A stretch of DNA of 64,000 bases, from positions 599,536-663,535 of the forward strand of contig JAHPZH010000001.1 of NCBI GenBank assembly GCA_019058315.1. Reading direction: 5' to 3'. The notes under the pieces were generated by a model. The model saw nothing but the letters and a program-made list of their open reading frames with translations. It made no database searches and was not told where the DNA came from. How positions within the stretch are numbered: the first letter of the stretch is position 1; each line of letters begins with the position of its first letter. Positions 15,330-32,248 of this stretch are shown here, in pieces. This DNA is from Candidatus Helarchaeota archaeon. GTDB lineage: Archaea > Asgardarchaeota > Lokiarchaeia > Helarchaeales > RDOG01. Both the position numbers and the translations under genes were made by a program.

Positions 15330-18300
15330 ATGAAAAAAGATAAATTCGTAAACTTAATTTTGGCTTATTTTCTCATAATTTTCATATTTCTCCCCGTTAT
15401 TCATTCACCTTCATCAAATTTTTTGCCGCTATGGAGTAAAATAACAATTACTAACGAAATTCCGAAACATAAGCTTGAATTAGAAACTTCTGCTTTGGGC
15501 TGGCCCATGACTGAGGTGGTTTCCACGGAGAGTACGGGTAATTCTTATCATCCCTCGATCGCGGTGGACGGTACCGGGAACGTACATGTGGCGTGGGAAG
15601 ATTGGACGGACTATGGAGGTTCGGGAACGGATAATGATATATTCTATAAGTGCTGGAACGCAACCACTGGAACATGGAAGACTATAGAGGTGGTTTCCAC
15701 GGAGAGCATGGGGGATTCTTACTCTCCAACAATCGCTGCAGACGGTTTTGGGAACGTGCACGTGGCGTGGTATGATTTGTCGGATTACGGGGGCTCGGGG
15801 ACTGATTGGGATATATTCTATAAGCGCTGGAACGCCACCACAGGAACATGGTCAGGATTTATTAATACAACTGATGTAATCTCCACGGAGAGCACAGATC
15901 TTTCCCGTAAACCCTCACTGGCGGTAGACAGTTCTGGGAACGTGCACGTGGCGTGGGAAGATTGTACGGACTATGGGGGTTCGGGGACGGATAATGATAT
16001 ATTCTATAAGTGTTGGAACACCTCCACGAGTTCTTGGACTACGACCGTGCTAATCTCCACGGAGAGTACGGGTAATTCTTATAATCCCTCGATCGCAGTG
16101 GACGGTTCCGAGAACGTGCACGTGGCGTGGTACGATTTGACGGATTACGGAGGCTCGGGGACTGATAAGGATATATTCTATAAACGCTGGAACGCCACAG
16201 GAATATGGTCAGGATTTATTAATACAACTGATATAGTCTCTACGGAGAGCTCGAATGATTCTTGGCTTCTAGCAATCGCGGTGGACGGTTCCGGGAATGT
16301 ATACGTGGCGTGGTGTGATTTGACGGACTATGGGGGCTCGGGAACGGATCCTGATATATTCTATAAGTGTTGGAACACTACCACAGGAATATGGAACACG
16401 ACAGAGGTGGTTTCCACGGAGAGCACGGGTATTTCTTTTCATCCAACAATAGCAGTGGACGGTTCTGGGAACGTGCACGTTGCGTGGATGGATTATACGG
16501 ACTATGAGGGTGCAGGAACGGACCGGGATATATTCTATAAGCGCAGGAACGCCATCACAGGAATATGGTCAGGATATGTTAATGCGAGTGATGTAGTCTC
16601 CACAGAGAGTACGGGACAATTTTATAATTCCAGTCCAACAATAGCGGTTGATACTACTGGAAACGTGCATGTGGCATGGGATGATTCGACTAATTATGGA
16701 GGTTCGGGGACCGATCATGATATATTTTATAAACACCAAATAAATATTGCAAATAATTATTCGGATGATTTTAATTCCGGGACCTTAGATCCGAAATGGA
16801 TATGGCACGATGGGGGTGAAGGGGAGAGTTGGAACTTAACCGTTAATCCCGGAAATTTACGGATAATCTCGACGAGTAAGATTAATGCATGGTGGGGTAA
16901 TAATGGAGACAATATTATTTATATGCCATACATATATCAAAATTTTTCTAATATTCAATATTTTGAAATTATAACTAAGGTTAATCCTCCAGACGGAAAT
17001 GGAAAAGGGAATGGAATAGTTCTTTATGAGGATGATAATAATTATATTGTTTTAAATAACTATCGAGATAGTGTGGGAAATATTCTCTATGCACAGTATA
17101 GAAGTGTGGGAGATCCACTAACTAATATAGGTGTAATCAGAACTACCGTCAATTATTTTAAATTAATGCGAATAGGAAATTTAATTTCATATCAATATTC
17201 AAATGATGGAAGTTCTTGGAATATATTAGCAAATTATACTCATAACTACAATTTTATTCGGATGGGTATTTTTTGTTCAAGTGTAGGAGGAGGTATATTT
17301 AATTCAGATTTTGACTTTTTCAATTTCACAGAGTTAGCACCTTCTATGCCGCCACCAGATCCAAATACAAAAACCCCTCTTTGGAAATATGATACTGGTA
17401 GTTCTATTTATTCTGTTGCAATTACACCTAATGGTCAATATATTGCGGTAGGGACTGGAAACAGTTTACATTTTTGGGATATAAACTCTTCCACTCCTCT
17501 TTGGAGTTATTATGTTGGAGATGTTGTTCAAGCAGTGGATATGTCAGAAGATGGAAATTATATAGTTGCTGGAACTGGAGTTTTGGACCAGCCAGGTAAT
17601 GTTGTATTATGGCAACGTAGTAGTTCAACTCCAATATGGAATTATACAGGTTCTGGTAATTTTGGTTCTATTGCTATATCTGCTGATGGCAATTATATTG
17701 TTGCTGGAGACAGACTTTCAAATAACTTGCATTTATGGCATAGAGATAATTCTACACCTTTGTGGTCTTTCAATCCTGGTTCAGGTAATTGGGAATCGGT
17801 TGCAATTTCATCAGATGGATATTACATTGTCGCTAGTGATGGTTTCTATCATGATTATGTTTATTATTTTGATAGGACAAGTTCTACTCCTATGTGGAAC
17901 TATCAATGTGGTTCGGATGTTTGGTCAGTAGACATTTCAAAAGATGGGCAATATTACGCTGCAGGAAGCAAAGATCATAAAATATATTTCTGGCAAAATA
18001 ATAGTGATACACCAGTTTGGGATTATTCTACTAGTGGAGAAGTGTTTTCGGTTTCAATTTCAAACGACGGATCTCATATTGCAGCTGGAAGTGTCGATAA
18101 TAACCTATATTATTTTAAAACTGATAATTCTACTCCTCAATGGTCCTATACAACTGGTGATGATATCTGTTCAGAAAGAACTGTTTCCATCTCTGGAGAT
18201 GGAGAATATATTGCAGCAGGAACTAAGGATTCTAAAATTTATTTCTTCTATAGAAATGATTCTACACCCATATGGAATTTTACTACAATTACTGGATCTA

Positions 18301-21300
18301 TTGGAGCCATTGATTTATCGGATACAGGACAATATTTGGTAGCAGGCGGGCAAGATCATTATGTCTATGTATTTTCACAAGATAATGAAATGCCCCCAAC
18401 TTCAAATCATCCATTAGATATAATTACTACTGTAAGCGGAACAGAAACGATTAATTGGACACTTTACGATGATTCTGGACCAGGTCAATACCGAATTTGG
18501 GTTAATGATACTAATAATAACTATTATATATGGATTGATTGGACACCGTGGATTAATAATACTAATTTAATCGTTCCAATAAATAGAAGTACTGTCGGAG
18601 TGTTCAATTATACTATAGAATATAATAATAGCAATGGAACATTTGGAATTCCTGATATAGTTATAGTAAAAATAGAAATCTCGGTATTTAACTGGACTAT
18701 GACTGAAGTTATCTCTACGGAGAGTACGGAAGATTCTTCCCAGCCAGCAATTGCAGTTGATAATCTTGGAAATGTTCACGTGGTATGGAATGATTGGACT
18801 GACTATGGAGGTTCAGACATGGATTGTGATGTATTTTACAAGCGTTGGAATGCTATTACGAGCAACTGGACTTTGACGGAGGTAGTTTCCACTGAAAGTA
18901 CGCTTGATGTTTGGAATTTATCCATCGTGGCTGATAGTTCTGGGAATTTACACGTGGTTTGGAGCGATTGGACAGATTATGGAGGTTCAGGAACAGACAA
19001 TGATATATTTTACAAGTTCTGGAATGCTACTTCGGGAACTTGGAGCGGATATATTAATGCTACCGATGTGGTCTCTACAGAGAGCACAGGAAGCTCTAGG
19101 GATCCGGCAATCGCAGTGGATGGTTCCGGGAATGTGCACGTGGTATGGACTGAATGGTCTAATGGAGATATATTCTACAAATTCTGGAACTCTACCTCGA
19201 AAACTTGGAACGGGAATATTAATGCTACCGATGTGGTCTCCACGGAGGGCACAGGTCAATCTTGGTATCCATCTATCGATGTGGATGGATCCGGAAATGT
19301 GCACGTGGTGTGGGAGGATTCGTCGGATTACGGTGATTCGGGAACAGATGATGATATATTTTATAAATTCTGGAATGTTACCTCAAGAATTTGGAGTGGA
19401 AATATTAACACAACTGACATAGTTTCAACGGAAAGCACGGGGGGCTCTTGGTATCCATCGATCGCTGTGGATAGTTCTGGGAATGTACATGTGGTATGGA
19501 GCGATTGGACGGATTATGGAGGTGCGGGATTGAAAAATGATATTTTTTACAAATTCTGGAACGTAACCTCGGGAACTTGGGGTGGTAATTTTAATGCAAC
19601 CGATGTTGTCTCCACTGAAAGTACGGAAAGTTCTTACAGTCCATCGATATTTGTTGATAGTTTCAATAACTTACACGTGGTATGGGAGGATCATACGGAT
19701 TATGGGATGTCAGGAACAGATAATGACATATTTTACAAGTTGAGGAACGCTCCCTCGGGAATCTGGAGCGGAACTGTTAATATTACTGATATAATATCGA
19801 CAGAGAGCACGGGATCTTCTTGGAACCCATCGATAGTTGTTGACGGCTCTGGGAACATACATGTTACTTGGGATGATATGACCAATTATAATGGTTCAGG
19901 AATAGATCGTGATATATTTTATAAGAAAAAAACAATTACGGAATTACCATCTCCTCCTACTTCAAATCATCCAGCAGATATTATTACTCCATTAAGTGGA
20001 ACAGATACCATTAACTGGACACTATACGATGATTTTGGACCAGGTCAATACCGAGTTTGGGTTAATGATACAAACAATAATTACTATATATGGGTAGATT
20101 GGACAATATGGACTAATAATACTAATTTGGCCATTCCAATTAATAGAACTGCTATCGGAGTGTTCAATTATACTATAGAATATAATAACAGCATAGGATT
20201 ATTTGGGATTCCAGATACAGTTCTTGTATTTATTAATCTCCCTGCTCAGAGTAATTCTATTATTTATGGTCTAAATTCGTCTATAGGGTATAATTATCAT
20301 GCAATTCGTATAGATTTGGGTGATATAATAGTTGAAAATACTTTAAATCTTACTCCAGGTAAATTAAATGGGACTCCAGTGATTAATTCTACTATACTTG
20401 AAAACTCAAATGTTATATACGAATCATTTCTGGACAATATTAATCTGTTCGGGAATGCAAAGCTTACTATGAGAAATATATTTGAAACAGGATTAAATAT
20501 TTATTTATTCAATAACTCTGAATTGATCCTAGAGAATTGTACCCTTAATTCAATCACGGCTTGCGACACCTCAAAAGTTTGGATTAAGAATACAACTATA
20601 AACTATATATATGATTATATTAATTGGAGTTTTCCGATTATTTTTGATCCCAGCCCCGACTCAAGTACAATATATGTATTACAAAAATCAACTATAAGCC
20701 AAGTTCACTTATCTGGTGGATCAAATTTTGTAGTTGAAAATAGCACGATTGATTGGATGACAATGCAATCTTTAGCGAACATAATATCAGGAATTTCAAG
20801 AATTTCTTTGCAAGCAACGATTACTAATTCAACGTTAAATTATCTTAGGCTTTATAGGGATTCAAAAGCTACGGTATTTAGCTCACAACTTATTACAGCA
20901 TATGTGTATGATATAGCAAAATTGAGTTTAGTTGCGTCCACAATTACGAATTTATATTATGGCATAATTTGCAATTCAGGATTCACAAGTATTGTTGATG
21001 GTGTTCCAAGTGGAGGTTATATAAATAATACTCAACTAATCGGAACTTCACCATCTGGTTCGTTTGAGCTTATAAGTGTTGCAGTAACCGGTTCTGCATC
21101 TGCCTATATAGAGGGATGGCTAACAACTACTTCATTTGATCTATATTTATATGATTCTTCCTTAGCTCAGTTAAATTACACTTTTGATGCGAATTTAATA
21201 TGTTCTTATAATAATTCTCAATTAGACATTGAAAATTCGATTATAACAACTATAATGGCGTATTTGAATTCTTCAGTAACAATCCAAAAAAATTGTTCGA

Positions 21301-23123
21301 TTGGTTATATGACTATTTGGGGGACAGGGGCTATCTCAATAGATAATAGCACAATTAATGACATATATACAGCTCAATCTTTAACTTCCTCACCAGTTGG
21401 CAATATTTTAATTACGAACTCAACTATCTCATGGGCATCTATTTCTGGGGAATTTATAGCGACCTTTATAAATTGTATAATTAATTCTTTGGTAGAAGGC
21501 ATTGTTGTTTATGATGGTACTGTTATAATAGATTCAACTGGGATAAGTGGGTCAGGAAGTTATACAAATTATACTCAAATCATTTCAAGTACAGTTTTTT
21601 CAAGGTCTTTAATGTTGATCGAAGTAAATAATACTGCTAATGTAATTATTAATGAAGGTTGGTATGGTAATATATATTTAATGCATGATGCAAGTGCCAC
21701 TCTAACTAATGCAAACATAGCAGGAATAGCTTTGTTCAATAATTCCAATGCTTTCATCCATAATTCTACTATAAACGGAACTTTGTTTGGGTTAATGAGT
21801 CTTGGGAGTTCTTATTTTTCAATTGATCAAAATTCCACTTTAAGTATGATGTTTTGTACGGCATCAAGTAATGGGACAATGACTAACTCTACGGTTCTTT
21901 CAAGATTAATCTTAGCCAATTCCGCAACATTGACCATTCTAAAATCTACAATCTTGGGAGTCGCTAAAATTATGGGGTCAAATTCAATTGATTATTCTCT
22001 TAAAATGTATAATTCATCAATTGATGTACTTGAGGGAATTATCTGGGATTATTTATTATTTTATGTAACTATTAAACCTTCAATAATATTAAATAGTCCA
22101 CAAAATCAAACTGTAATAAAAAAACCAGCATATATTGATCTTAAGATTTCAGATGATGATCTAGACCCCTCGACTGTGGAATGGATAGCAAACGTAACAC
22201 AACTTACTTGGACGAATTCTTTTATTGGGTCTTATGATATTGATCTATCTAGTTTTGCCAGTGACCAGACGGTGCAATTCTGGGTTAGAGCGAATGATAC
22301 TTTAGATAATCAGAATCTAATAACTTTTATTTTGACTTTTGATGATATTCCTCCAACTAAACCATCGAATCTAACAGCAATTATTCAAAAAGGCAATATT
22401 ACTATCTCTTGGAATTCATCTTCAGATTTTAATGCTATTTATTATCATATTTGGAGACATAGTAAAAGAGTTAGTAAATATTTAGGAAATACTACATCCA
22501 ATTTTTATATAGATCTCGAGAGTTTAAAACCAGGAAAATATACTTACGAGATAATTCCATTTGATGAAGCAAATAATACAGGAGAATCTATAAACATTAC
22601 TGTAAAAATACGAGGAAGAGATATATATTATCCATTTTTAGAACCCCCTAAAGATAATATAACCTTTATTATTTTCGTGATTATAGGATCTATAGCTGTA
22701 ACCACAAGCGTAGCAATTGTATATAGGAAATACAAAGGTTCAGAAAAAAAGCCTAAAAAAATAGGTAAGGAGACAGGACCAAAACGGAAAAAAAGAAAGA
22801 AATGGAAAGGTAAAATGGCTTTCAAAGTGGATTATATTGGAATCAGTGATCTTTCTGTAGAACTAAAGCTTAGAAATCTCACTAAATCCCCAATTCCTCT
22901 AGATTCCATTGAAGATGAAAATATTAGGGAATTTTATAGTCAAGAATTCAACATTTTATCTGTAGATGAAATAAATAGAATTTTAAAAATGCAAATTCCA
23001 GATATTTCTGATAAAATAGAAATATTGGATGAATTAGCTCGTTTATCTCCAGAAGAACGAAAAGATTTGATTGAATCTCTTGAAAAACTTAATCGATCAA
23101 GACTTAATAGTGAATTTCAATAA
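15330..23123 (+). CDS. Giant surface protein: two 7-repeat beta-propellers, ConA-like domain, WD40-like propeller, beta-helix, FN3-like domain, TM, cytoplasmic tail
   Basis: 7+7 repeats of VSTEST..S..P.IAVD..GNVHVxW.D..DYGGSGTD.DIFYK; W.Y...V.SVAIS.DG.YIAAGS repeats; NSTI repeats; signal peptide and C-terminal TM. Confidence 0.8.
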   Translation: MKKDKFVNLILAYFLIIFIFLPVIHSPSSNFLPLWSKITITNEIPKHKLELETSALGWPMTEVVSTESTGNSYHPSIAVDGTGNVHVAWEDWTDYGGSGTDNDIFYKCWNATTGTWKTIEVVSTESMGDSYSPTIAADGFGNVHVAWYDLSDYGGSGTDWDIFYKRWNATTGTWSGFINTTDVISTESTDLSRKPSLAVDSSGNVHVAWEDCTDYGGSGTDNDIFYKCWNTSTSSWTTTVLISTESTGNSYNPSIAVDGSENVHVAWYDLTDYGGSGTDKDIFYKRWNATGIWSGFINTTDIVSTESSNDSWLLAIAVDGSGNVYVAWCDLTDYGGSGTDPDIFYKCWNTTTGIWNTTEVVSTESTGISFHPTIAVDGSGNVHVAWMDYTDYEGAGTDRDIFYKRRNAITGIWSGYVNASDVVSTESTGQFYNSSPTIAVDTTGNVHVAWDDSTNYGGSGTDHDIFYKHQINIANNYSDDFNSGTLDPKWIWHDGGEGESWNLTVNPGNLRIISTSKINAWWGNNGDNIIYMPYIYQNFSNIQYFEIITKVNPPDGNGKGNGIVLYEDDNNYIVLNNYRDSVGNILYAQYRSVGDPLTNIGVIRTTVNYFKLMRIGNLISYQYSNDGSSWNILANYTHNYNFIRMGIFCSSVGGGIFNSDFDFFNFTELAPSMPPPDPNTKTPLWKYDTGSSIYSVAITPNGQYIAVGTGNSLHFWDINSSTPLWSYYVGDVVQAVDMSEDGNYIVAGTGVLDQPGNVVLWQRSSSTPIWNYTGSGNFGSIAISADGNYIVAGDRLSNNLHLWHRDNSTPLWSFNPGSGNWESVAISSDGYYIVASDGFYHDYVYYFDRTSSTPMWNYQCGSDVWSVDISKDGQYYAAGSKDHKIYFWQNNSDTPVWDYSTSGEVFSVSISNDGSHIAAGSVDNNLYYFKTDNSTPQWSYTTGDDICSERTVSISGDGEYIAAGTKDSKIYFFYRNDSTPIWNFTTITGSIGAIDLSDTGQYLVAGGQDHYVYVFSQDNEMPPTSNHPLDIITTVSGTETINWTLYDDSGPGQYRIWVNDTNNNYYIWIDWTPWINNTNLIVPINRSTVGVFNYTIEYNNSNGTFGIPDIVIVKIEISVFNWTMTEVISTESTEDSSQPAIAVDNLGNVHVVWNDWTDYGGSDMDCDVFYKRWNAITSNWTLTEVVSTESTLDVWNLSIVADSSGNLHVVWSDWTDYGGSGTDNDIFYKFWNATSGTWSGYINATDVVSTESTGSSRDPAIAVDGSGNVHVVWTEWSNGDIFYKFWNSTSKTWNGNINATDVVSTEGTGQSWYPSIDVDGSGNVHVVWEDSSDYGDSGTDDDIFYKFWNVTSRIWSGNINTTDIVSTESTGGSWYPSIAVDSSGNVHVVWSDWTDYGGAGLKNDIFYKFWNVTSGTWGGNFNATDVVSTESTESSYSPSIFVDSFNNLHVVWEDHTDYGMSGTDNDIFYKLRNAPSGIWSGTVNITDIISTESTGSSWNPSIVVDGSGNIHVTWDDMTNYNGSGIDRDIFYKKKTITELPSPPTSNHPADIITPLSGTDTINWTLYDDFGPGQYRVWVNDTNNNYYIWVDWTIWTNNTNLAIPINRTAIGVFNYTIEYNNSIGLFGIPDTVLVFINLPAQSNSIIYGLNSSIGYNYHAIRIDLGDIIVENTLNLTPGKLNGTPVINSTILENSNVIYESFLDNINLFGNAKLTMRNIFETGLNIYLFNNSELILENCTLNSITACDTSKVWIKNTTINYIYDYINWSFPIIFDPSPDSSTIYVLQKSTISQVHLSGGSNFVVENSTIDWMTMQSLANIISGISRISLQATITNSTLNYLRLYRDSKATVFSSQLITAYVYDIAKLSLVASTITNLYYGIICNSGFTSIVDGVPSGGYINNTQLIGTSPSGSFELISVAVTGSASAYIEGWLTTTSFDLYLYDSSLAQLNYTFDANLICSYNNSQLDIENSIITTIMAYLNSSVTIQKNCSIGYMTIWGTGAISIDNSTINDIYTAQSLTSSPVGNILITNSTISWASISGEFIATFINCIINSLVEGIVVYDGTVIIDSTGISGSGSYTNYTQIISSTVFSRSLMLIEVNNTANVIINEGWYGNIYLMHDASATLTNANIAGIALFNNSNAFIHNSTINGTLFGLMSLGSSYFSIDQNSTLSMMFCTASSNGTMTNSTVLSRLILANSATLTILKSTILGVAKIMGSNSIDYSLKMYNSSIDVLEGIIWDYLLFYVTIKPSIILNSPQNQTVIKKPAYIDLKISDDDLDPSTVEWIANVTQLTWTNSFIGSYDIDLSSFASDQTVQFWVRANDTLDNQNLITFILTFDDIPPTKPSNLTAIIQKGNITISWNSSSDFNAIYYHIWRHSKRVSKYLGNTTSNFYIDLESLKPGKYTYEIIPFDEANNTGESINITVKIRGRDIYYPFLEPPKDNITFIIFVIIGSIAVTTSVAIVYRKYKGSEKKPKKIGKETGPKRKKRKKWKGKMAFKVDYIGISDLSVELKLRNLTKSPIPLDSIEDENIREFYSQEFNILSVDEINRILKMQIPDISDKIEILDELARLSPEERKDLIESLEKLNRSRLNSEFQ

Positions 23124-23130
23124 TTAAGAA

Positions 23131-23189
23131 TGGTGGATAGGGGAGGATTCGAACCTCCAACCGCTCGGTTAACAGCCGAGTCCTATACC
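23131..23189 (-). pseudogene. 3' fragment of tRNA-Asn (att-like direct repeat)
   Basis: 59 bp with 2 mismatches to 27969-28027; lacks the 5' acceptor strand. Confidence 0.9.
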
Positions 23190-23209
23190 CAAAAGGATTT
23201 GTTGTTTAA

Positions 23210-26200
23210 ATGATTAGATGGAAATTCCAAAGGAGAAAAAACTCTATGAATAGAAATAAACTCTCATATTTTGGTAAAATTCAATTTTTTATAATTTTAA
23301 TATTTATTCTTTCTATGTTTTCATCCATATCTTATCTTTGGTCGCCTTGGAGCTATAAAATGAACCCAAGATCTCATATTGGTGATCAGGTGTTATTTAA
23401 ATCCGATTATTATGGCTATGGTAACGAAATAATAATGATTGAGGATCCTGATGCAGACGTTACTCCTGGTCCTTTTAATGATATAATCATAGTTTTTATA
23501 AATAGCAGTTCCGATCCAGCTGGATTATTCGTAACTGGCGATGAATTCGATCCTGGAGTATTTGTTGTCACGATTGGATTCACTGATGGTCCTACCGTTG
23601 GAACATTTCTCCATGTTGAAGATGGTGATTTAATTATGGTCATATATAAAGGAGAGGTGTATGCATCTGATATTTGGCATAAAACATACACAGCTATAAT
23701 CCCAAAACCCCCAATGGAAGATGAATATCATGGTTTATCTTCTTATCATGTATTAAAAATTCTGGATCCAGACATGGACATTACAAACATTACAGAAACT
23801 TTTATCCCTGATAATTTAACCGCTAAAATTGATAGCACAAGCGATCCAATTGGAATTACAGCAACATTCATTGAACTTTTCCCAACTGATGGGGAATTTT
23901 ACTTTGTATTTTCATTCACTAATGGATCTACTTATGATGATTATCTCCACGTAGAAGATGGAGATACGATTAGTTTAACATATTACGATGAACATAATTA
24001 TCAAGGAGATAGTGTTTATCTCGAAGCAAATGCCACTTGGCACAAAACTTATACCGGAACAATTAATGTAAGTGTAACTGGGTCTGTATCTGCGGGTTTA
24101 GATGCTGTTGCTGAAGTAACAATTAATGATAAAGATTTAGATATAAATCCTCTAGTTCTTGATAATTATTCTTTGCCATTTAGTCCCCTCGAGGTCCATA
24201 CTCAAGGAAATAGTTCCAATCTAATTAAAATCCCTCTAAATGAAACTGGACCATCAACTGGGATATTCAAAGGAGTTTTTAATTTAACATTAGGTCCGAC
24301 AAATCAAGATATTCCTTCCCTTCACGTATATGATGGTGCAATTATAATATATACGTATTATGATGCACGAGATATGTATGGTGATTCGGTAAATTTATCT
24401 AAACAAGAACAATTCTTTTTACATCAAAATGGTGTTTTCATAATCGATGATCTTGAATATTTTGGAGATCCAGTTACTGTAAATGTAACAATTAAAGATA
24501 AAGATTTAAACCAACTTCCGACTGTTCAAGAAACTGCAACAATTAATGCATCAAGTAGTCCTTCGGATCTAATTAGTATTACTATCTACGAAAATGGTAC
24601 AAATAGTGATAAATTCATAGGTCAATTTGACATAGGCTCCCTTGTTACATCCGATCCTGATGACTATTTACATGCAAATACAGGAGAAAATATAACAATT
24701 ATATATTTTGATGAAAAAGATATAAATGGTACATCCCAAACGAGAATTGTTAACATAACTTGGTATGAATTTCCAGAGCCCCCATCAATAAAAGTGGTAG
24801 GACTAGTAAATAATTCCATAATCTGGTCTGGGACTCTACTTAATTTCAATGTCTCTGATAATTGGTTAATAGATTCTATTTGGTATAGAGTTAATTTTGG
24901 TCCTAATATTACAATTGATACTTCTATTGGTGTTCATAATTTTTCATTCGTAATAAATGCTACAATAGAAGATCCCTACTGGATTTATGGTTTAAATTAT
25001 ATTGACATTTTTGCTAATGACTCTTTAGGTTTCGAAACTATGAGTAGATTTATACTTACTCTTGATGACACTCTTATTAGAATTAGACCACTTAATCAAA
25101 CAAATATTGTGCCAGATGCAGACGGTAATATCCTTATTGAATGGAACTCTTCGCCAGCTTGGAATCCTATTAGCTTTGATATTTACCGCAGTACCACCCT
25201 TGGATTTACCCCCAATGCAACAAACCAAATAGCACAGGGAATAAGTGATATATACTATTTAGATAATGGAACTGTTGATGGTCTTCATTATTATACAATT
25301 ATCGGTTTTAATGGGACTAATAACTCAACTTATTGGGAATATAGTTCGATATTGATTATCGATATAACTCCACCTAGTTGGGTTTTACCTCCAACTTTTA
25401 CCAGTACTCCAGTTGGTACAGAAAACGCTCGACTTGCCTGGACTAACTCGTTTGACTCTTATGATATAGCTGGATTTTCAATCTATCGAGCTAATGTTGA
25501 TAATTTTACCCAAAGTGTGCGGATTGCCAACCTGACCGAATTAACTTATCTGGACACTAGTTTAAATGCGACAATTTATTATTATTGGATAACAGCATAT
25601 GATGAGAAAGGACAAGAAAGCGGACCATCATTTTCTAGAAGTGTTATCCTACCTGGATTTGACGACGGGGATATCAGTTGTAATAAAGGAGAATACTTTG
25701 GTGATGGGGTCATCGTCTATGTGAATATTACTGATTTGGATTTAAATCAAAACGATTTAACCATTCAGAACGTCACAGTAACTGCAAATACCTCAACATA
25801 TTCAATTAATTTTACCTGTCTAGAATTAGGTCCTAATAGTGATACTTTTGTAGGTAATTTTTCGTTAGTAACTACTGGTACTAATGATTCAACAGATGAG
25901 TTGAACATTACACCTGGAAGTACTATCACAATTTTTTATTTAGATGAAAAGAATAGCGCTGGGTATCCAATATATAGATCTGTTACGATATTTTGGATCG
26001 ACGATCCCCAACCCCCAATTATAGAATTGGACGCCCCTGCAAATAGTTCTATTGTTTGGAGTTGGGATACACTTTATTTCACTGTAAGAGATAATGTACG
26101 GGTAGATTCTGTTTGGTATAGAGTTAATGATGGTATTAATGTAACAGTTGCTACTGATATACAATTCGATGAATATTCATTTGGAATCCTTGTTAATTTA

Positions 26201-27937
26201 TCAGCTCCCGATTGGATTTATGGTTTTAATTATATTGATATTTTTGCTAATGACACTATGGGTATGGAAAATACTAGTAGATTTTCATTTATTATTGATG
26301 ATACCCTTATTAGAATTAGACCGCTTAATTTAACAAATATTGAGCCAGATGCAGACGGTAATATCCTCATTGAATGGAACTCTTCGCCAGCTTGGAATCC
26401 TATTAGCTTTGATATTTACCGCAGTACAATCCCTGGATTCATTCCCAATGCAACAAACCGAATAGCACAAGCGATACCTTGGTCAACTAATTATTATATA
26501 GATAATGGAACTGACGATGGTCTTCACTATTATACAATTATTGGATTTAATGGGACTCATAATTCAACTTGCTGGGAATATGGTTCAATATTAGTTAACG
26601 ATATTACTCCACCGATTCCACCCCAAGATATTAATGCTACTCCAGTTGGTACAAGTGGTGTTCGTCTCATCTGGACTGCCCCGCCAGCCTATTATGATGT
26701 GGTTGGATATTCAATCTACCGAGCTACTATAGATGATTTTGCCCAAAGTGTGTGGATTGCCAACGTGACCGAATTGACACATTTAGACACAGGTTTAAGT
26801 AGTGGACTTTATTTTTATTGGATAACAGCATATGACGAGAAAGGACAAGAAAGCGGACCATCATCACCGGAATTTGTTATATTACCTGGACCAGAAGATG
26901 GTCATATTGAAACTGATAGAGCAGGGTACTTTGGGGAAAATGTTACCGTTTATGTAACCATTACAGATCTAGACTTAAACCAAGATGATTTATCAGTTCA
27001 GGATGTTACTATAAACGTTTCAACTGGTTTTGAATTAATTTATGTAAATCTTTTTGAGTCCGGTTGTAATAATAATACTTTTTTTGGGAATTTTACCTTA
27101 GTTACTTACATTACAAACGATACTCTTGATTACATAAATGTTACTGACGGAGCTATTATTACCATTTCATATCTTGATGAAACGAACAGCCTTGATATTC
27201 CTGAATTATTTCATATTAATATTACTTGGAACTTGATCTCCCAAGCCCCAATAATAAATCTGATAAGCCCGGAGAATGAAACCACAGTTCAAAAACCTAA
27301 CTTAATTGATTTGAATATTTATGATCCAAACTTGGATCTTTCCACTGTGGAATGGAGGGCAAACACAACACAGCTTACTTGGACAAATTCGTTTATTGGG
27401 TCCTATGATATTGATCTATCGAGTTTTGCTAGTGACCAAACTGTGCAATTTTGGGTTAGAGCGAATGATACTGCAGATAATCAGAATTTAATAACTTTTG
27501 TTTTAACTTTTGATGATATTCCTCCAACCAAACCATCGAATATGACAGCAGTAATTCAAAAAGGTAATATTACAATCTCATGGAATACATCTTCAGATGT
27601 TCATATAGTTTATTATCATATTTGGCGACATAGTAAAAAAGAAAGTAAATATTTAGGAAATATCACATCCACTTTTTATACAGATCTCGAGAGTTTAAAA
27701 CCGGGAAAATATACTTATGAAATAATTCCATTTGATGAAGCAAATAATACAGGAGAATCTATAACCATTACTGTAAAAATCAGAGGAAAAGAAACTTATT
27801 ATCCATTCTTGGAACCACTTGATAATCAAGTGACTATTATAATAATAGCAATTTTAGGATCGATAGCTATGGTGATAGGTATTGCTGTATTATTAATGAG
27901 AAAAAAATTTATTTCAGCAAAAAACCATAGTAAATAA
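23210..27937 (+). CDS. Large membrane-anchored surface protein with Ig-like/FN3 repeats
   Basis: Repeated I.D.DLN domains, internal duplication (DGNILIEWNSSPAWNPISFDIYRST twice), FN3 motif YYYWITAYD, C-terminal TM. Confidence 0.8.
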   Translation: MIRWKFQRRKNSMNRNKLSYFGKIQFFIILIFILSMFSSISYLWSPWSYKMNPRSHIGDQVLFKSDYYGYGNEIIMIEDPDADVTPGPFNDIIIVFINSSSDPAGLFVTGDEFDPGVFVVTIGFTDGPTVGTFLHVEDGDLIMVIYKGEVYASDIWHKTYTAIIPKPPMEDEYHGLSSYHVLKILDPDMDITNITETFIPDNLTAKIDSTSDPIGITATFIELFPTDGEFYFVFSFTNGSTYDDYLHVEDGDTISLTYYDEHNYQGDSVYLEANATWHKTYTGTINVSVTGSVSAGLDAVAEVTINDKDLDINPLVLDNYSLPFSPLEVHTQGNSSNLIKIPLNETGPSTGIFKGVFNLTLGPTNQDIPSLHVYDGAIIIYTYYDARDMYGDSVNLSKQEQFFLHQNGVFIIDDLEYFGDPVTVNVTIKDKDLNQLPTVQETATINASSSPSDLISITIYENGTNSDKFIGQFDIGSLVTSDPDDYLHANTGENITIIYFDEKDINGTSQTRIVNITWYEFPEPPSIKVVGLVNNSIIWSGTLLNFNVSDNWLIDSIWYRVNFGPNITIDTSIGVHNFSFVINATIEDPYWIYGLNYIDIFANDSLGFETMSRFILTLDDTLIRIRPLNQTNIVPDADGNILIEWNSSPAWNPISFDIYRSTTLGFTPNATNQIAQGISDIYYLDNGTVDGLHYYTIIGFNGTNNSTYWEYSSILIIDITPPSWVLPPTFTSTPVGTENARLAWTNSFDSYDIAGFSIYRANVDNFTQSVRIANLTELTYLDTSLNATIYYYWITAYDEKGQESGPSFSRSVILPGFDDGDISCNKGEYFGDGVIVYVNITDLDLNQNDLTIQNVTVTANTSTYSINFTCLELGPNSDTFVGNFSLVTTGTNDSTDELNITPGSTITIFYLDEKNSAGYPIYRSVTIFWIDDPQPPIIELDAPANSSIVWSWDTLYFTVRDNVRVDSVWYRVNDGINVTVATDIQFDEYSFGILVNLSAPDWIYGFNYIDIFANDTMGMENTSRFSFIIDDTLIRIRPLNLTNIEPDADGNILIEWNSSPAWNPISFDIYRSTIPGFIPNATNRIAQAIPWSTNYYIDNGTDDGLHYYTIIGFNGTHNSTCWEYGSILVNDITPPIPPQDINATPVGTSGVRLIWTAPPAYYDVVGYSIYRATIDDFAQSVWIANVTELTHLDTGLSSGLYFYWITAYDEKGQESGPSSPEFVILPGPEDGHIETDRAGYFGENVTVYVTITDLDLNQDDLSVQDVTINVSTGFELIYVNLFESGCNNNTFFGNFTLVTYITNDTLDYINVTDGAIITISYLDETNSLDIPELFHINITWNLISQAPIINLISPENETTVQKPNLIDLNIYDPNLDLSTVEWRANTTQLTWTNSFIGSYDIDLSSFASDQTVQFWVRANDTADNQNLITFVLTFDDIPPTKPSNMTAVIQKGNITISWNTSSDVHIVYYHIWRHSKKESKYLGNITSTFYTDLESLKPGKYTYEIIPFDEANNTGESITITVKIRGKETYYPFLEPLDNQVTIIIIAILGSIAMVIGIAVLLMRKKFISAKNHSK

Positions 27938-27968: not shown

Positions 27969-28045
27969 TGGCGGATAGGGGAGGATTCGAACCTCCAACC
28001 GCTCGGTTAACAGCCGAGTGCTATACCTGATTAAGCCACCTACCC
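27969..28045 (-). tRNA. tRNA-Asn(GTT), CCA encoded
   Basis: Cloverleaf; CTCGG-CT-GTT-AA-CCGAG; G73. Confidence 0.95.
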
Positions 28046-28052
28046 ATTTTAA

Positions 28053-28127
28053 TGGGATGGAGATCGGGAATTGAACCCGAGTCTATTGAGCCACAATCAA
28101 TTATTCTACCATTAAACTATCTCCACC
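28053..28127 (-). tRNA. tRNA-His(GTG), G-1 and CCA encoded
   Basis: ATTGA-TT-GTG-GC-TCAAT; G-1:C73. Confidence 0.95.
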
Positions 28128-28133
28128 AAAATT

Positions 28134-28243
28134 TGGTGCGGATGGGGAGATTTGAACTCCCGTTTTTAGATTTCAGCAGTTTTTGGCGTTCTAGTCCAAA
28201 TAATTTGGAAGTCTAAATGTCTAAACCTCTAACGTACATCCGC
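28134..28243 (-). tRNA. tRNA-Gly(TCC) with intron carrying an alternative GCC anticodon
   Basis: TTAGA-CT-TCC-A, 34-nt intron (28172-28205), A-TCTAA; GCC cassette at 28185-28187. Confidence 0.9.
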
Positions 28244-28250
28244 AAAAAAA

Positions 28251-28613
28251 TTAGAGAATTAAGGCAGGCACTGTAATAAATTGCACTGGATTTCTCTTGT
28301 TATACTTTCTATGACATTCCCAACACCATGTAATATTGTTTGTTAATGTTTCAACTTTATAAGCTGAACCGTTACACTTTCCAATAATATGGTGTCGTGT
28401 CAAGTAATTGTTTGGGTCTAGTTTATTTTGTTTTACACCGCATTTCTGACAGGTAAATTTATCTCTATTGTAGATAAATAACCGGAGCTTTAGTTGAAAT
28501 CGCCCGCAGTGTGGACATTGAATGTAACCGATAACTTCTTTATTGAATTGTTTGCATTGTTTGTATTCTTTTTTCAGACCTTTTATTGTTTTTTTACAAT
28601 AAATACACTTAAA
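28251..28613 (-). pseudogene. HNH endonuclease frame with N-terminal Zn-ribbon; start codon missing
   Basis: 120 open codons: FKCIYCK...CPHCG...RDKFTCQKCG...LTRHHII...NNITWCWECHRKYN. GAGGTGA SD upstream, but an in-frame TGA precedes the frame. Confidence 0.8.
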
Positions 28614-28641
28614 TCACACATCACCTCTTTTTGTTTGTTGA

Positions 28642-28713
28642 TCCGACTGTGCGGATTTGAACCACAATATCACAGATCTACAGTCTGCTGCCGTACCAGT
28701 TGGCTACAGTCGG
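28642..28713 (-). tRNA. tRNA-Tyr(GTA)
   Basis: C1-G72, A73, short variable loop (archaeal type); GCAGA-CT-GTA-GA-TCTGT. Confidence 0.95.
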
Positions 28714-28793
28714 TATTTTAATAAAGATGGGTAGGGTCTAATTCAAAAAAAATAAAAGGGATTGATGGTAAGTCTAATTATATTAAGATATTT

Positions 28794-28910
28794 TTAATCA
28801 ACTTCCTTAGACATCGGACTTAATACAACCTCTACGACTTTTTCAACAACTTTCATTTCTTCTGCTTCTTTTTCCGTCAAATATGCATAATAACCCATAT
28901 ATTGTTGCAA
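28794..28910 (-). CDS. Putative 38-aa microprotein
   Basis: GGAGGTGA SD, then TTG: MQQYMGYYAYLTEKEAEEMKVVEKVVEVVLSPMSKEVD*. Confidence 0.45.
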   Translation of the reverse strand: MQQYMGYYAYLTEKEAEEMKVVEKVVEVVLSPMSKEVD

Positions 28911-28970
28911 AATTCTTCACCTCCAATTTTTTTTTAAGATAATTTCTAGCTTCAATTGGGTTTTGTAAAG

Positions 28971-29041
28971 TTGCACAGACAGGAATCGAACCTGCTTGCA
29001 ACTCGTTGTAAGCGAGTCAACGATCCAACCGTCCCTGTGCA
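28971..29041 (-). tRNA. Atypical tRNA-Val(TAC)-like gene
   Basis: 7-bp acceptor TGCACAG/CTGTGCA, canonical T arm, loop CT-TAC-AA; but G8, a 5-nt D loop and a 6-bp anticodon stem. Confidence 0.65.
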
Positions 29042-29046
29042 AATGA

Positions 29047-29121
29047 TGGAATCGGTGGGATTTGAACCCACATAAACTTGATCTTCAGTCAAGCGGACTC
29101 GCCGGATTATCCTACGATTCC
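29047..29121 (-). tRNA. tRNA-Phe(GAA)
   Basis: CTTGA-CT-GAA-GA-TCAAG. Confidence 0.95.
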
Positions 29122-29123
29122 AA

Positions 29124-29209
29124 TGGTGGGGTTACTAGGATTTGAACCTAGATCACCAGATTTCTCCACATTTGGAGTCTGGAAGTCTCCCGGATTAACG
29201 TATAACCCC
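29124..29209 (-). tRNA. tRNA-Trp(CCA) with 10-nt intron at 37/38
   Basis: CCAGA-CT-CCA-A-[ATGTGGAGAA]-A-TCTGG; CTCC/GGAG helix. Confidence 0.92.
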
Positions 29210-29211
29210 AT

Positions 29212-29327
29212 TGGTACTCCCGCTCGGGTTCGAACCGAGGTCAATGGGTTTCTCCCATATTCAGATTATGTTTGATCTGAATCAGACCAAAGCCCATCAT
29301 GCTTGGCCAAAGCTACACCACGGGAGT
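29212..29327 (-). tRNA. tRNA-Gln(TTG) with intron carrying an alternative CTG anticodon
   Basis: A1-U72; 37-nt intron 29250-29286; T-CTG-A cassette at 29261-29265. Confidence 0.92.
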
Positions 29328-29331
29328 ATTA

Positions 29332-29482
29332 TGGCGGTAGGGGAGAGATTTGAACTCTCGCTCCCCGTGGGGAAGTAGATTTCTGGTAAAGTGAAATCTC
29401 AACTCGAGGGTAGGCTACTAAGCCGTTCCATTCTCACTGCTTCAATAGCAGTCTACCGTCGTAACCACTTGACTACCCTACC
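29332..29482 (-). tRNA. tRNA-Ser(GCT) with intron carrying CGA, GGA and TGA anticodons
   Basis: Long variable arm, G73; 65-nt intron 29381-29445. Confidence 0.92.
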
Positions 29483-29490
29483 GCTGATTG

Positions 29491-29607
29491 TGGCGGACTT
29501 GGGGAGATTTGAACTCCCAATCTACGGGTTTCTCCACGATTAAGTTCGGGTTACCCCAAAGCTTGAGATAAAAGCCCGTTGCCGTAACCTGGTTTGGCCA
29601 CAAGTCC
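29491..29607 (-). tRNA. tRNA-Lys(TTT) with intron carrying an alternative CTT anticodon
   Basis: 39-nt intron 29530-29568; CTT at 29542-29544 preceded by CCCG-AA. Confidence 0.92.
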
Positions 29608-29611
29608 GCTT

Positions 29612-29824
29612 TGGCGGGATTGCGGGGAATTGAACCCCGACCTTATGATTTCTGTACTACGGTCGCTTTCCTCCTTTTTCAAAGTCTTATTCTAAACCCT
29701 GCCATGGATAAGTCAACTGAACCCCTATTAAGGAAATTTAATCATTTTTGAGGTGAAATTAATAATTATCAAAAAGGGGCCGTAGTTAGACAGTCATAAA
29801 TCATAGCCATTAGACCACAATCCC
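29612..29824 (-). tRNA. tRNA-Asp(GTC) with 138-nt intron
   Basis: Strict BHB (CTGT/ACAG helix, ACTACGG/CCGTAGT outer stem); intron 29650-29787; G73, CCA. Confidence 0.88.
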
Positions 29825-29882
29825 ATTATTCCTCTTCGACTTCAGCCCTAATCTTAAATTAAAAAATGGGGATAATTTGTTA

Positions 29883-29929
29883 GGGGGCAATAATTAGACA
29901 GTCATTAATAACTATTGAACCACAATCCC
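29883..29929 (-). pseudogene. Degenerate copy of the tRNA-Asp 5' half plus intron start
   Basis: GGGATTGTGGTTCAATAGTTATTAATGACTGTCTAATTATTGCCCCC versus GGGATTGTGGTCTAATGGCTATGATTTATGACTGTCTAACTACGGCCCC. Confidence 0.75.
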
Positions 29930-29963
29930 CGTAAGATGTTGTTGGCTGAGTATACAACTATCT

Positions 29964-30028
29964 GGCTTCAGTACGAGAGGAACAATTTCACATTGTTTGT
30001 TTCTGACAAGAGGAACTTCATCATAGCC
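29964..30028 (-). ncRNA. Box C/D guide sRNA complementary to the 23S sarcin-ricin loop
   Basis: GGCT-ATGATGA-AGTTCCTCTTGT-CAGA-...ATGTGA...-GTTCCTCTCGTA-CTGA-AGCC: terminal stem, perfect C and D boxes, both guides antisense to (U)ACGAGAGGAAC. Confidence 0.85.
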
Positions 30029-30158
30029 TTGGGAATTATAGTTTGGATAACGACTTATATCCAAGCCCCTGCTATTTCGTTCTCTCATTTTCATTACCAA
30101 TTGCTACACCTCTTACTTTAATTGATTGTATACAATAGATTGTTTTCATCTGATAAAC

Positions 30159-30195
30159 TAATGATAGTGGCAGTAGGATTTGAACCTACAATCTT
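30159..30195 (-). pseudogene. 3' fragment of initiator tRNA-Met (direct repeat)
   Basis: 37 bp with 1 mismatch to 31002-31038. Confidence 0.9.
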
Positions 30196-30214
30196 ACAGG
30201 CTATTTGCAAAGAA

Positions 30215-30874
30215 TTAGATATTCTCTATTATGTATTTGGTCATTCCTTTTAAGATATATAACTCCTTTGTACTATCAATTCTCAATTTGCATACCCCAT
30301 TATAACTTCTACCGATTCCTCTAGAGCCATGCTTTTTTATGTAAGGTTTTGTAAACTGATTCTTTGGAATATTAAGTATTATTGACCAATAAGAAATCAT
30401 TTTTTCAATTTCATGATAAGAATGTAGATGAAGATGAATCTTAATAGAATTTTTATCGATTTTAAGAACATCTAAAAGAAATCTAAGAAAAATTTCAATT
30501 AATTTTGGGTCGGAATTACTAAATTCTATTCTATGATCACTAGATGTAGTCCCTTCGCTCTGATATAATGTTGTTCCTATTATCATTAGGTCTGACCAAT
30601 TTTCTTTTGCAATTTTCTGCCCTTCCTTATAATATAGTTTTCTTCGTTGTTTTGCTAGTTCCTTCATTTTGTGATGCCCTTTTTCTAGAATAGATTGAGA
30701 TTTCTTCTTCAGTCTATCTTTTTGTTCATTTGTTAAAATTATATCTCTTGTCCAGTTCGCAACTGTTCCCTTCGGTATTCCCATTTGTGAAGATATTTCT
30801 CCAAAAGAATACCCCTTTTTACGCAACCTCCTAGCTTTTCTCTTAATTTTTTCTTTATAACTTCTATACTTCAA
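30215..30874 (-). CDS. HTH plus LAGLIDADG-like (homing-endonuclease-fold) protein
   Basis: N-terminal HTH (LRKKGYSFGEISSQMGIPKGTVANW); GTTLYQSEG followed by IEFSNSDPKLIEIFLRFL. Confidence 0.7.
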   Translation of the reverse strand: MKYRSYKEKIKRKARRLRKKGYSFGEISSQMGIPKGTVANWTRDIILTNEQKDRLKKKSQSILEKGHHKMKELAKQRRKLYYKEGQKIAKENWSDLMIIGTTLYQSEGTTSSDHRIEFSNSDPKLIEIFLRFLLDVLKIDKNSIKIHLHLHSYHEIEKMISYWSIILNIPKNQFTKPYIKKHGSRGIGRSYNGVCKLRIDSTKELYILKGMTKYIIENI

Positions 30875-31007
30875 TGAACATCACTCTTATATCTCCATAG
30901 CCCAATAATGGCAGTTCAATTGTTTTGTTTCATATTCATATATAAACTCAACAAATTCTCCTGACTATCAAGTGAAATTTTCGTAGAGACGGGAAATTCA
31001 ATAATGA

Positions 31008-31101
31008 TAGTGGCAGTAGGATTCGAACCTACAATCTTTGGGTATCTCAATAGATTATTATTTATGAGCCCAACGAGATCTCCTGATTACTCCATGCCAC
31101 T
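31008..31101 (-). tRNA. Initiator tRNA-Met(CAT) with 19-nt intron
   Basis: A1-U72, three G-C pairs closing the anticodon stem; intron 31044-31062 with CTCA/TGAG helix. Confidence 0.92.
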
Positions 31102-31102
31102 A

Positions 31103-31241
31103 TGGTAGAGAGGAGGGGGATCGAACCCCTGCTCTTCAGTTGTCTAAAATTGTTTTGTTACAAAGACAACCATATAAGATTCGTCTTTGTATGACATTAC
31201 ATCATATCAGACTGACGCCTGAACCACTCGGCTACCTCTCT
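31103..31241 (-). tRNA. tRNA-Ile(GAT) with 63-nt intron
   Basis: TCAGT-CT-GAT-A, intron 31142-31204, A-ACTGA. Confidence 0.9.
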
Positions 31242-31243
31242 AT

Positions 31244-31351
31244 TGGTGCTGACCGGGGGAATCGAACCCCCGTCAACGGATGTCTTCATGTAAATTCGAG
31301 ATTGCGTTTCAATCGAAAGTCCGCTATACTTGTCCGCTATACTAGGCCAGC
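31244..31351 (-). tRNA. tRNA-Glu(TTC) with intron carrying an alternative CTC anticodon
   Basis: 32-nt intron 31282-31313; T-CTC-G at 31297-31301. Confidence 0.92.
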
Positions 31352-31355
31352 ACGG

Positions 31356-31492
31356 TGGAGGGCTAGGAGGGATTTGAACCCTCAACATCTCACTATCTCT
31401 GGCTAACTTACGCTACAGATACATTCCGCATAAGGAAGAGCATGTCTTCTGCATACTAGGCGAGCGCTCTAGACCATTGGAGCTACTAACCC
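31356..31492 (-). tRNA. tRNA-Thr: AGT in place, TGT after removing a 33/34 intron
   Basis: U73, CCA; BHB TCGC/GCGG-AA|TGT-A defines introns 31424-31457 and 31395-31419. Confidence 0.8.
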
Positions 31493-31578
31493 TATTTTTC
31501 CAATGCAAATGGTTCTTAAACCATACTATTTTTTAAAACTTCTTTTCATCAACTCCGTTTTTTTTATTTTAAATATGT

Positions 31579-31656
31579 TGGTGGACTCGCCGAGCTTCGA
31601 TCTCGGAGCCTCCTACTTGCAAAACAGGCGTTCTACCATTTTCGAACTACGAGTCC
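31579..31656 (-). tRNA. tRNA-Ala(TGC), atypical (A3-U70, A54)
   Basis: CCTGT-TT-TGC-AA-GTAGG; acceptor GGACTCG/CGAGTCC; T loop ATCGAAG. Confidence 0.85.
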
Positions 31657-31665
31657 ATTTTTCTA

Positions 31666-31738
31666 TGGGCAAGAGAGGATTCGAACCTCTGTGGGTTGGT
31701 CTGCATCCAACTGCATGACCTAATTCTGCCACTTACCC
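31666..31738 (-). tRNA. Atypical second tRNA-Cys(GCA)
   Basis: GTTGG-AT-GCA-GA-CCAAC; A32, A73, no encoded CCA. Confidence 0.7.
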
Positions 31739-31762
31739 ACTATTAAACAAATGTAATTTTGA

Positions 31763-31839
31763 TGGAGGATAAGACAGGATTTGAACCTGTGTGAAATTGG
31801 GTTGCAGCCAATCGCCTACGCCAACTCAGCCACTTATCC
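31763..31839 (-). tRNA. tRNA-Cys(GCA)
   Basis: ATTGG-CT-GCA-AC-CCAAT; U73, CCA. Confidence 0.95.
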
Positions 31840-31843
31840 TTAA

Positions 31844-32020
31844 TGGTGCAGGAGGAGGGATTTGAACCCTCGGTCTCAAGATTTCTTCTAGTATTAGGAT
31901 TCTGTTCGGATTCCGTTATTCGAATACTGTACTATTCGCATTCTGTTATTAGAATTCCAGATCGATGAGGATAACCTCAAAAAATTGTCTTGTAGTTTAT
32001 CCATACTAGCGTACTCCTGC
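31844..32020 (-). tRNA. tRNA-Arg with five tandem anticodon cassettes (TCT, GCG, TCG, CCG, CCT)
   Basis: A20 in D loop; stem CAAGA/TCTTG; on the + strand the insert reads Arg codons AGG 31896, CGG 31907, CGA 31921, CGC 31937 and AGA 31951, each in a tt-NNN-at context. Confidence 0.88.
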
Positions 32021-32021
32021 A

Positions 32022-32100
32022 TGGTGGGATCGGCAAGATTTGAACTTGCGATTGCTTGATCCCAAATCAAGAGTCCTAAACCATACTAGACCACGATCCC
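32022..32100 (-). tRNA. tRNA-Pro(TGG)
   Basis: CTTGA-TT-TGG-GA-TCAAG; CCA. Confidence 0.95.
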
Positions 32101-32110
32101 CAGTATAAAG

Positions 32111-32248
32111 TGGAAGGAAGGGGTTTCGAACCCCTGAACTCCTACGAGATTAGATTTCTCACAGACCTTGAGTGTCGTTCTTAGTATCGTTCTTGACCGA
32201 TAATAAATATCTTAAGTCTAACGCCTTTGACCACTTGGCTATCCTTCC
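32111..32248 (-). tRNA. tRNA-Leu(TAA) with 55-nt intron containing CAA/TAA repeats
   Basis: Long variable arm, A73; intron 32156-32210. Confidence 0.9.

Follow-up and report, generated by a model that had tools for sequence, protein, structure and literature searches.

What does a 65-base RNA gene, embedded among the tRNA genes of an Asgard archaeon, guide, and what would it do to the ribosome? The gene lies in a window of 64,000 nucleotides (G000:C3:599536-663535 of the host assembly), and an initial annotation had described it as a box C/D sRNA with two guides against the sarcin-ricin loop, part of 23S rRNA. Few RNA sequences in biology are conserved as strongly as this loop, which acts as the docking and activation site of translational GTPases. 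None of the papers searched mentions a modification within it, and we know of none in any organism studied; given the extreme constraint on its sequence, a methyl group there might be harmful. The host belongs to the Promethearchaeia (Asgard) and is represented by a 5.8-Mb assembly of 12 contigs (~30% G+C, 94% complete). Our analysis points to an RNA of a known kind with an unusual target, and a guide to the sarcin-ricin loop appears to be new.

The sRNA gene and its genomic setting

We found that the minus strand of the window carries, at positions 30028 to 29964, a box C/D sRNA of 65 bases with textbook archaeal architecture. Listed from 5' to 3', and beginning with a candidate promoter element, its parts are as follows.

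30055-30060, minus strand: possible archaeal TATA box of the sRNA gene, ATATAA, 27-32 bases 5' of the stem, as judged from the sequence alone
30025-30028, minus strand: 5' half of the terminal stem, GGCU, pairing with AGCC at 29964-29967
30018-30024, minus strand: C box AUGAUGA, an exact match to the RUGAUGA consensus
30006-30017, minus strand: D' guide AGUUCCUCUUGU, 12 nt, whose positions 1-11 pair with 23S ACGAGAGGAAC
30002-30005, minus strand: D' box CAGA, 12 nt past the C box, with one deviation from CUGA and the GA core retained
about 29992-30001, minus strand: spacer of 9-10 nt between the D' and C' boxes, as read from the sequence
29985-29991, minus strand: C' box GUGAAAU, degenerate, with the UGA core retained
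29972-29984, minus strand: D guide UGUUCCUCUCGUA, 13 nt, of which 13/13 positions pair with host 23S UACGAGAGGAACA
29968-29971, minus strand: D box CUGA, unchanged in related strains
29964-29967, minus strand: 3' half of the terminal stem, AGCC, pairing with GGCU at 30025-30028

The C box AUGAUGA, the D' box CAGA, the D box CUGA and the 4-bp stem named in the initial annotation were thus all recovered, on the minus strand. Its description of the C' box as degenerate was also correct, though its reading UGUGAAA starts one base further 5' than GUGAAAU. This C' box deviates from the consensus at three positions and fails a strict C' filter, while the C box is invariant across a four-sequence alignment (A1). 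The guide lengths of 12 nt (D') and 13 nt (D) fit the archaeal C/D range of about 12 nt, and the spacer between the D' and C' boxes has a length inside the usual archaeal range. In the minimum-energy fold, the GGCU/AGCC stem of 4 bp is closed and both guides are mostly unpaired; relative to shuffled sequence, the fold has a z-score of 0.63, i.e., no extra stability, as expected of a guide RNA. No Rfam family matched over 29964-30028, even at E values up to 10, and the lack of any match above a gathering threshold places the sRNA outside any described Rfam C/D family. The ATATAA motif sits within a small inverted repeat (about 30043-30064). Elsewhere in the window, a SNORD64-like Rfam match at 28764-28830 proved weak and devoid of the boxes, and was set aside.

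Profile searches recovered the three protein partners of such RNAs in the host genome. Fibrillarin and Nop5 adjoin each other on the same contig as the sRNA gene, and L7Ae is encoded elsewhere.

G000:C3:1273552-1274235, host gene: fibrillarin (309.8 bits)
G000:C3:1274436-1275071, host gene: Nop5 (218 bits)
G000:C5:287009-287287, host gene: L7Ae (107.1 bits)

The sRNA gene lies inside a co-oriented tRNA array (27969-32248) that holds 19 of the 42 tRNAs of the host genome as called by ARAGORN, many of them with introns. The 3' part of a tRNA is found upstream, 137 bases from the sRNA gene, and the 5' half of a tRNA-Asp follows downstream at a distance of 34 bases; the first T-run past the sRNA gene comes only after this tRNA-Asp 5' half. 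On this layout the sRNA may be processed out of a tRNA co-transcript, as the initial annotation proposed, or may have a start of its own at the ATATAA element. Directly beside the array are genes of the archaeal mevalonate-pathway type (AcnX, UbiD-like, a UbiX-like flavoprotein and a member of the amino-acid-kinase family), indicating that the sRNA locus is chromosomal, with no obvious mobile element.

The neighborhood holds a number of further features. An intron of about 140 nt interrupts the tRNA-Asp(GTC) gene (minus strand, window 29612-29930): the 5' exon begins at 29824, the 3' exon occupies about 29650-29612, and the two joined give a 75-nt tRNA-Asp (ARAGORN). A second, diverged tRNA-Asp 5' half (29930-29883), the one located 34 bases downstream of the sRNA, can be joined to the same 3' half, and both 5' halves have a G+C-rich stretch at their end, with a T-run behind it. 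Also within the array, an open reading frame of 219 aa (window 30215-30874, minus strand) has an N-terminal helix-turn-helix and a LAGLIDADG_3 match that stays below threshold (E 0.034). This frame possibly represents a homing-endonuclease-like gene within or next to a tRNA gene, and a tRNA 3' part at 30165-30264 (a weak tRNA match, 24.4 bits) lies directly downstream of it. Two giant open reading frames of 2597 and 1575 aa occupy the plus strand just upstream of the array (window 15330-27937). The second of these, to which the Pfam scan was confined, had weak matches to fibronectin type III and Ig-like domains; this 1575-aa product is probably a surface protein.

Two guides and one loop in the host 23S rRNA

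A single 23S gene was detected in the host (G000:C5:105496-108654, minus strand). Its sarcin-ricin loop region reads CUCAGUACGAGAGGAACAGAC and contains AGUACGAGAGGAAC, which the D guide pairs perfectly. All 13 of the 13 guide positions form Watson-Crick pairs and, together with the D box, the complementarity to the host 23S extends over 17 contiguous bases, at which point the match stops. A 14-mer from this match occurs exactly twice in the 5.8 Mb, once in the 23S gene and once, in antisense, in the sRNA gene. Position 5 of the D guide, a U, lies opposite the equivalent of A2660 (E. coli numbering), which is nucleotide 2871 of the delimited 23S gene. The D' guide forms 11 pairs with ACGAGAGGAAC through its positions 1-11, including a G.U at position 3, near the nucleotide to be targeted. 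Its pairing is shifted by one base relative to that of the D guide, and its position 5, a C, lies opposite the equivalent of G2661. Alignment to the host's own 23S hence agrees with the earlier claim that both guides are antisense to the loop with an offset of one base, and counting from the boxes reproduces the two nucleotides to which the D+5 rule had pointed, A2660 for the D guide and G2661 for the D' guide with its one G.U pair.

We gauged the chance background with a genome-wide scan for RUGAUGA ... CUGA combined with a perfect 10-mer to rRNA at guide positions 2-11. This yielded three sites with a suitably spaced C box, compared to one for reversed rRNA. Two of the three were a T-run and a coding-looking stretch, leaving the sRNA gene as the only convincing site, and its guide-target match was the best among the host C/D candidates. 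The perfect Watson-Crick complement of the D' guide is found at five further genomic sites, which are purine-rich and apparently coding. These five coding-looking matches are absent for the guide variant of related strains, and the sarcin-ricin loop is the sole target common to the host and related-strain variants of the D' guide.

Other C/D sRNAs are scarce in the host. A strict four-box filter, whose C' criterion the sRNA under study fails, returned one other canonical sRNA (C5:103608), and a relaxed scan added one further sRNA with a perfect guide (C5:1346854); such a very low number of detectable C/D sRNAs is usual for mesophiles. The former candidate (G000:C5:103608, minus strand), with boxes that are fully canonical, is located some 1.9 kb downstream of the 23S gene, and the latter (G000:C5:1346854, minus strand) has AUGAAGA boxes, a 5-bp stem and a D guide perfectly matching the helix 71 region of 23S. 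The sole 16S rRNA match (G000:C12:50-897) is partial, covering model positions 4-828 at a contig end, so that guide-target checks exclude the 3' half of 16S.

When the two halves of the sRNA are aligned, the D' half resembles a D half that lacks the box-adjacent base (...GUUCCUCUUGU-CAGA vs ...GUUCCUCUCGUA-CUGA), which accounts for the one-base shift of the D' target. We infer that the D' guide arose by internal duplication or conversion in the host lineage, where alone a D' guide against the sarcin-ricin loop was seen. Related-strain contigs that cover the gene, from four other sediment metagenomes and 90-99% alike, carry four differences within it. The stem and the D guide are unchanged in these contigs, as are the boxes C, D' and D. 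Two of the differences are in the D' guide, where a U-to-C change at 30008 (position 3) converts the G.U pair into G-C and a C-to-U change at 30013 (position 8) converts a G-C pair into G.U. The other two are in the C' box, with G-to-A at its first position and U-to-A at its last, both of which bring it nearer to RUGAUGA. Upon counting the single changes possible at the 11 paired D' positions, we found 4 out of 33 to be pairing-neutral, as compared to 2 out of 2 of those observed. This is to be read as suggestive and not as proof. On contig X2 record 4 of a related strain, which spans 163 bases, the gene as a whole shows no greater conservation than its flanks (4 changes within its 65 bases vs 3 in the other 98). 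In a more distant contig of run X3, the match takes in the C box and the beginning of the D' guide, after which 80 unlike bases replace 182. Given the degenerate C' box and the CAGA sequence of the D' box, the D' site may work poorly.

Homologues with the same D guide

Pattern searches covered the class with 161 genomes and the phylum with 400, complemented by a sequence model (R1), and further scans extended to 185,579 species genomes, JGI metagenomes and viral contigs; in other archaea, the scans looked for the loop guide in the D position at a fixed register. C/D sRNAs that share this D guide and its register were found in six other Promethearchaeia genomes (G054, G058, G070, G009, G093 and G158), which represent three families, and on five metagenome contigs (L131, L152; L150, L166; L146). 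Their distribution is patchy. Only 7 of the 161 class genomes contain the loop-guide sRNA, which was found neither in the six closest GTDB relatives of the host (82-94% complete) nor in the single-contig genomes of the class. There was likewise no true match in 239 other Asgard genomes or, among the 185,579 species genomes scanned, in any other archaeon or bacterium, and the viral contigs gave no true match and none with the guide at the D' position.

Among the homologues, positions 2-11 of the D guide (UUCCUCUCGU) and the D box are retained throughout. These conserved positions match the 10-bp guide-target duplex of solved archaeal sRNPs. At position 1 of the guide any of the four bases occurs, and at position 12 either G or A; the only two changes in the core are both C-to-U opposite a G (G009 at position 4, G093 at position 8), leaving the pairing intact. 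The C box is retained save for one base in G009 and one in G158. The terminal stems covary, with GGCU/AGCC in the host, GGC/GCC in G158 and L146, and CCU/AGG in four genomes of family f4. Homologue guides measure 12-13 nt, and the C' boxes are better than that of the host (e.g., AUGAUGA or AUGAAGA), with the G070 homologue likewise having CAGA as its D' box. The D' guides, spacers and flanks are by contrast unrelated, with A-rich filler in most; outside the host lineage, a real second guide is present in the G158 and L146 homologues, and no tRNA lies within about 1.5 kb on either side of the homologous sRNAs. The G058, G070 and G009 assemblies themselves hold the loop sequence, and the lack of a loop copy in G054 and G093 suggests that their 23S is probably unassembled. 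Furthermore, the D' guide of G158 pairs, with one mismatch, with GGUAGCCAAAUG in the helix 70/71 region of 23S, a published methylation hotspot, which supports rRNA as the substrate class. The recurrence of the guide in independent lineages also argues against a chance match. In our view, the conserved guide, boxes and covarying stems mark a real, previously undescribed family of box C/D sRNAs in the Promethearchaeia, whose conserved guide is predicted to be aimed at the ricin-site adenosine.

A number of related RNAs and loci came to light in these searches. The subtype formed by L071 (G158) and L146 is a true double guide, with a D' consensus (..UUUGG.UACG) directed to helix 70/71 and the D guide directed to the sarcin-ricin loop. 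L055 (G045:C1:1204284-1204354) is a C/D sRNA with a CCA/AGG-type scaffold as in the family-f4 homologues. Its D guide GUUCUUCGCGU departs from the loop guide at two places, including the N+5 position. The G045 look-alike, with a G opposite A2660 at position 5, was left out of the family; it may represent a related guide that was retargeted to another RNA. Four metagenome contigs (L135, L142, L160 and L171) carry LSU rRNA genes with the loop AGCACGAGAGGAAC, in which the U normally found two bases ahead of the loop-closing C is replaced by C.

Several classes of matches were rejected. When the gene was compared with 40 relatives by BLAST, only their 23S genes came up, in antisense. The first phylum-wide pattern gave 25 matches against 13 for controls, most of which had no C box and lay in coding-looking sequence. 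The R1 model, built on sequence only, recovered its training sequences and G009; its weak matches L054, L059, L061, L066 and L068 are apparently one conserved coding stretch, and the remainder were unrelated. In the scan of 185,579 genomes, the matches in Poseidoniaceae, Thermoplasmata and bacteria did not show the sRNA architecture. Of the metagenome matches, several turned out to be rRNA genes in antisense whose loops are variant, one group was an RRM-type coding sequence, and the five viral-contig matches all fell in one conserved coding stretch.

Possible roles and relation to known guides

We consider it fairly likely that the locus is a working C/D sRNA gene that guides ordinary 2'-O-methylation at A2660, and in the host lineage perhaps additionally at G2661, with a role in stabilizing or fine-tuning an rRNA center. 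Points against this reading are the patchy distribution of the family, the weak boxes of the D' site, the G.U pair near its target base, the constraint on the loop, and a conservation among related strains that is no greater in the gene than in its flanks. The sRNA would join L7Ae, Nop5 and fibrillarin in the usual sRNP, which would bind helix 95 before it folds in the nascent 23S rRNA. In this complex the D guide would set the A2660 equivalent opposite its fifth base, allowing fibrillarin to methylate the 2'-OH of this nucleotide, and the D' guide would bind the same sequence one base along, leading to methylation of the G2661 equivalent. The likeliest role of these marks would be to stabilize or fine-tune the docking site of the translational GTPases. 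The sequences themselves show the anatomy, the complementarity to the host's own rRNA, the protein genes and the pattern of conservation; we infer expression, RNP assembly, methylation and its effect, as well as a D-guide function common to the sRNAs of other Promethearchaeia. A guide conserved in several Asgard lineages leads one to expect methylation of precisely the adenosine removed by ricin and, in the host lineage, also of the guanosine whose 2'-OH sarcin uses. If true, this would add a new functional center to the map of guided rRNA modification, would show how a guide duplication extends a target, and would open the question whether ribose methylation tunes or protects the loop; if false, strong guide conservation can exist without methylation.

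The two predicted sites coincide exactly with the nucleotides attacked by ricin and sarcin, and this raises the notion that the two methyls mainly protect the loop from toxins, which we nevertheless regard as quite improbable. A 2'-O-methyl at G2661 would remove the nucleophile on which sarcin-type cleavage depends, making a block of such cleavage sensible in terms of general RNase chemistry, and a methyl at A2660 might hinder depurination. The patchy distribution and the lineage-specific second guide would fit a conflict trait, and the self-protection of the thiostrepton producer at A1067 offers a precedent. Toxins directed at this loop do circulate among prokaryotes, as with SRLase1, a polymorphic toxin whose homologues occur across many bacterial phyla as well as in archaeal genomes, but this enzyme cuts between A2662 and G2663 (preprint 10.64898/2026.09.18.752725), one bond further on, so that methyls at 2660 and 2661 would not block it. 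The initial annotation had proposed protection of the loop against ribotoxins; this found no support, and nothing in the data links the guide to conflict. No gene of the RNase T1/sarcin family was found in the host genome; a RIP search, which gave no match even in its controls, carries no weight either way. Nearly all known guide-directed marks are explained by ordinary structural roles. A broader variant, in which the guide was duplicated to cover the neighboring nucleotide and serves either immunity against loop toxins or a switch in GTPase activation, likewise strikes us as having little in its favor.

Rather than directing both methylations, the RNA could help helix 95 to fold or assemble, with the D guide alone, or neither guide, methylating. 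We hold this to be unlikely too. In all homologues outside the host lineage it is indeed the D guide alone that addresses the loop, the C'/D' motif of the host is weak, and chaperone roles have been discussed for archaeal double guides (reviewed in PMC7994747). Pure antisense, however, would have no need for the register between D guide and D box that is fixed in every homologue, and both D' substitutions in related strains preserve pairing. By far the least probable reading, in our estimate, is that the locus has no function at all, being a chance look-alike, a decaying copy, a captured antisense piece of 23S or a plus-strand mimic of the loop. The lack of an Rfam family match would be in line with this, as would the complementarity that continues through the D box in the manner of a captured rRNA fragment. 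Yet the match to 23S ends after 17 bases, the architecture is complete with the right spacing, and the RNA is conserved with compensating stems in distant genomes that have no flanking sequence in common. A plus-strand loop mimic was rejected since the flanks are unable to form the helix-95 stem.

Published work locates the hotspots of archaeal guides in helices 35, 61, 68-71 and 90-93, and helix 95 is not listed among them (PMC7994747). None of nine 9-mers of the loop complement was present among 489 sRNAs of seven archaea; a 9-mer at the 5' edge of the loop matched only Sac-sR118 in that table, a Sulfolobus sRNA that resembles the loop guide minus two bases, but for which Dennis 2015 places the target elsewhere (PMC4644070). 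In the literature searched, coverage of which was incomplete, we found no earlier description of O-methylation of the loop, of A2660 or of G2661, and nothing on the C/D guides of Asgard archaea. The host sRNA resembles the archaeal box C/D sRNAs of Sulfolobus, Pyrococcus, Pyrobaculum and other sR families (PMC4644070, PMC7994747) in its size, boxes and guides of ~12 nt, and has its terminal stem, protein partners and N+5 rule in common with them. Unlike these, it is predicted to target helix 95 and directs both guides to one loop, one base apart; moreover, very few C/D sRNAs could be detected in its host, a mesophilic Asgard archaeon.

Among eukaryotic guides, human SNORD91 directs the modification of 28S Gm4618, a site mapped to helix 95 (as cited in PMC12288042). 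SNORD91 is likewise a C/D guide for the sarcin-ricin-loop helix. By our own numbering, we take Gm4618 to lie at the base of helix 95, outside the GAGA loop. Certain snoRNAs with unusual C'/D' motifs modify several sites in one target region (PMC5389607) and, as described there, address neighboring rRNA nucleotides from one guide RNA, as the host sRNA is predicted to do. Those snoRNAs are described as employing one guide with alternative box use, whereas the host sRNA has two separate guides with a one-base offset.

Links between C/D guides and tRNA genes are familiar from the intron of haloarchaeal tRNA-Trp, from the tRNA-sRNA co-transcripts of Nanoarchaeum and from the dicistronic tRNA-snoRNA genes of plants. 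The host sRNA gene similarly stands among tRNA genes on the same strand; in contrast to these examples, it lies outside any intron, and its homologues have no tRNA nearby. Lastly, the thiostrepton-resistance methyltransferase 2'-O-methylates A1067 in the GTPase-associated center and thereby protects the producer. It thus also places a 2'-O-methyl in the factor-binding region of 23S, there with a protective effect, which makes it the model for an anti-toxin role of the marks predicted here. That enzyme is a stand-alone protein of a bacterial antibiotic producer and acts on another helix.
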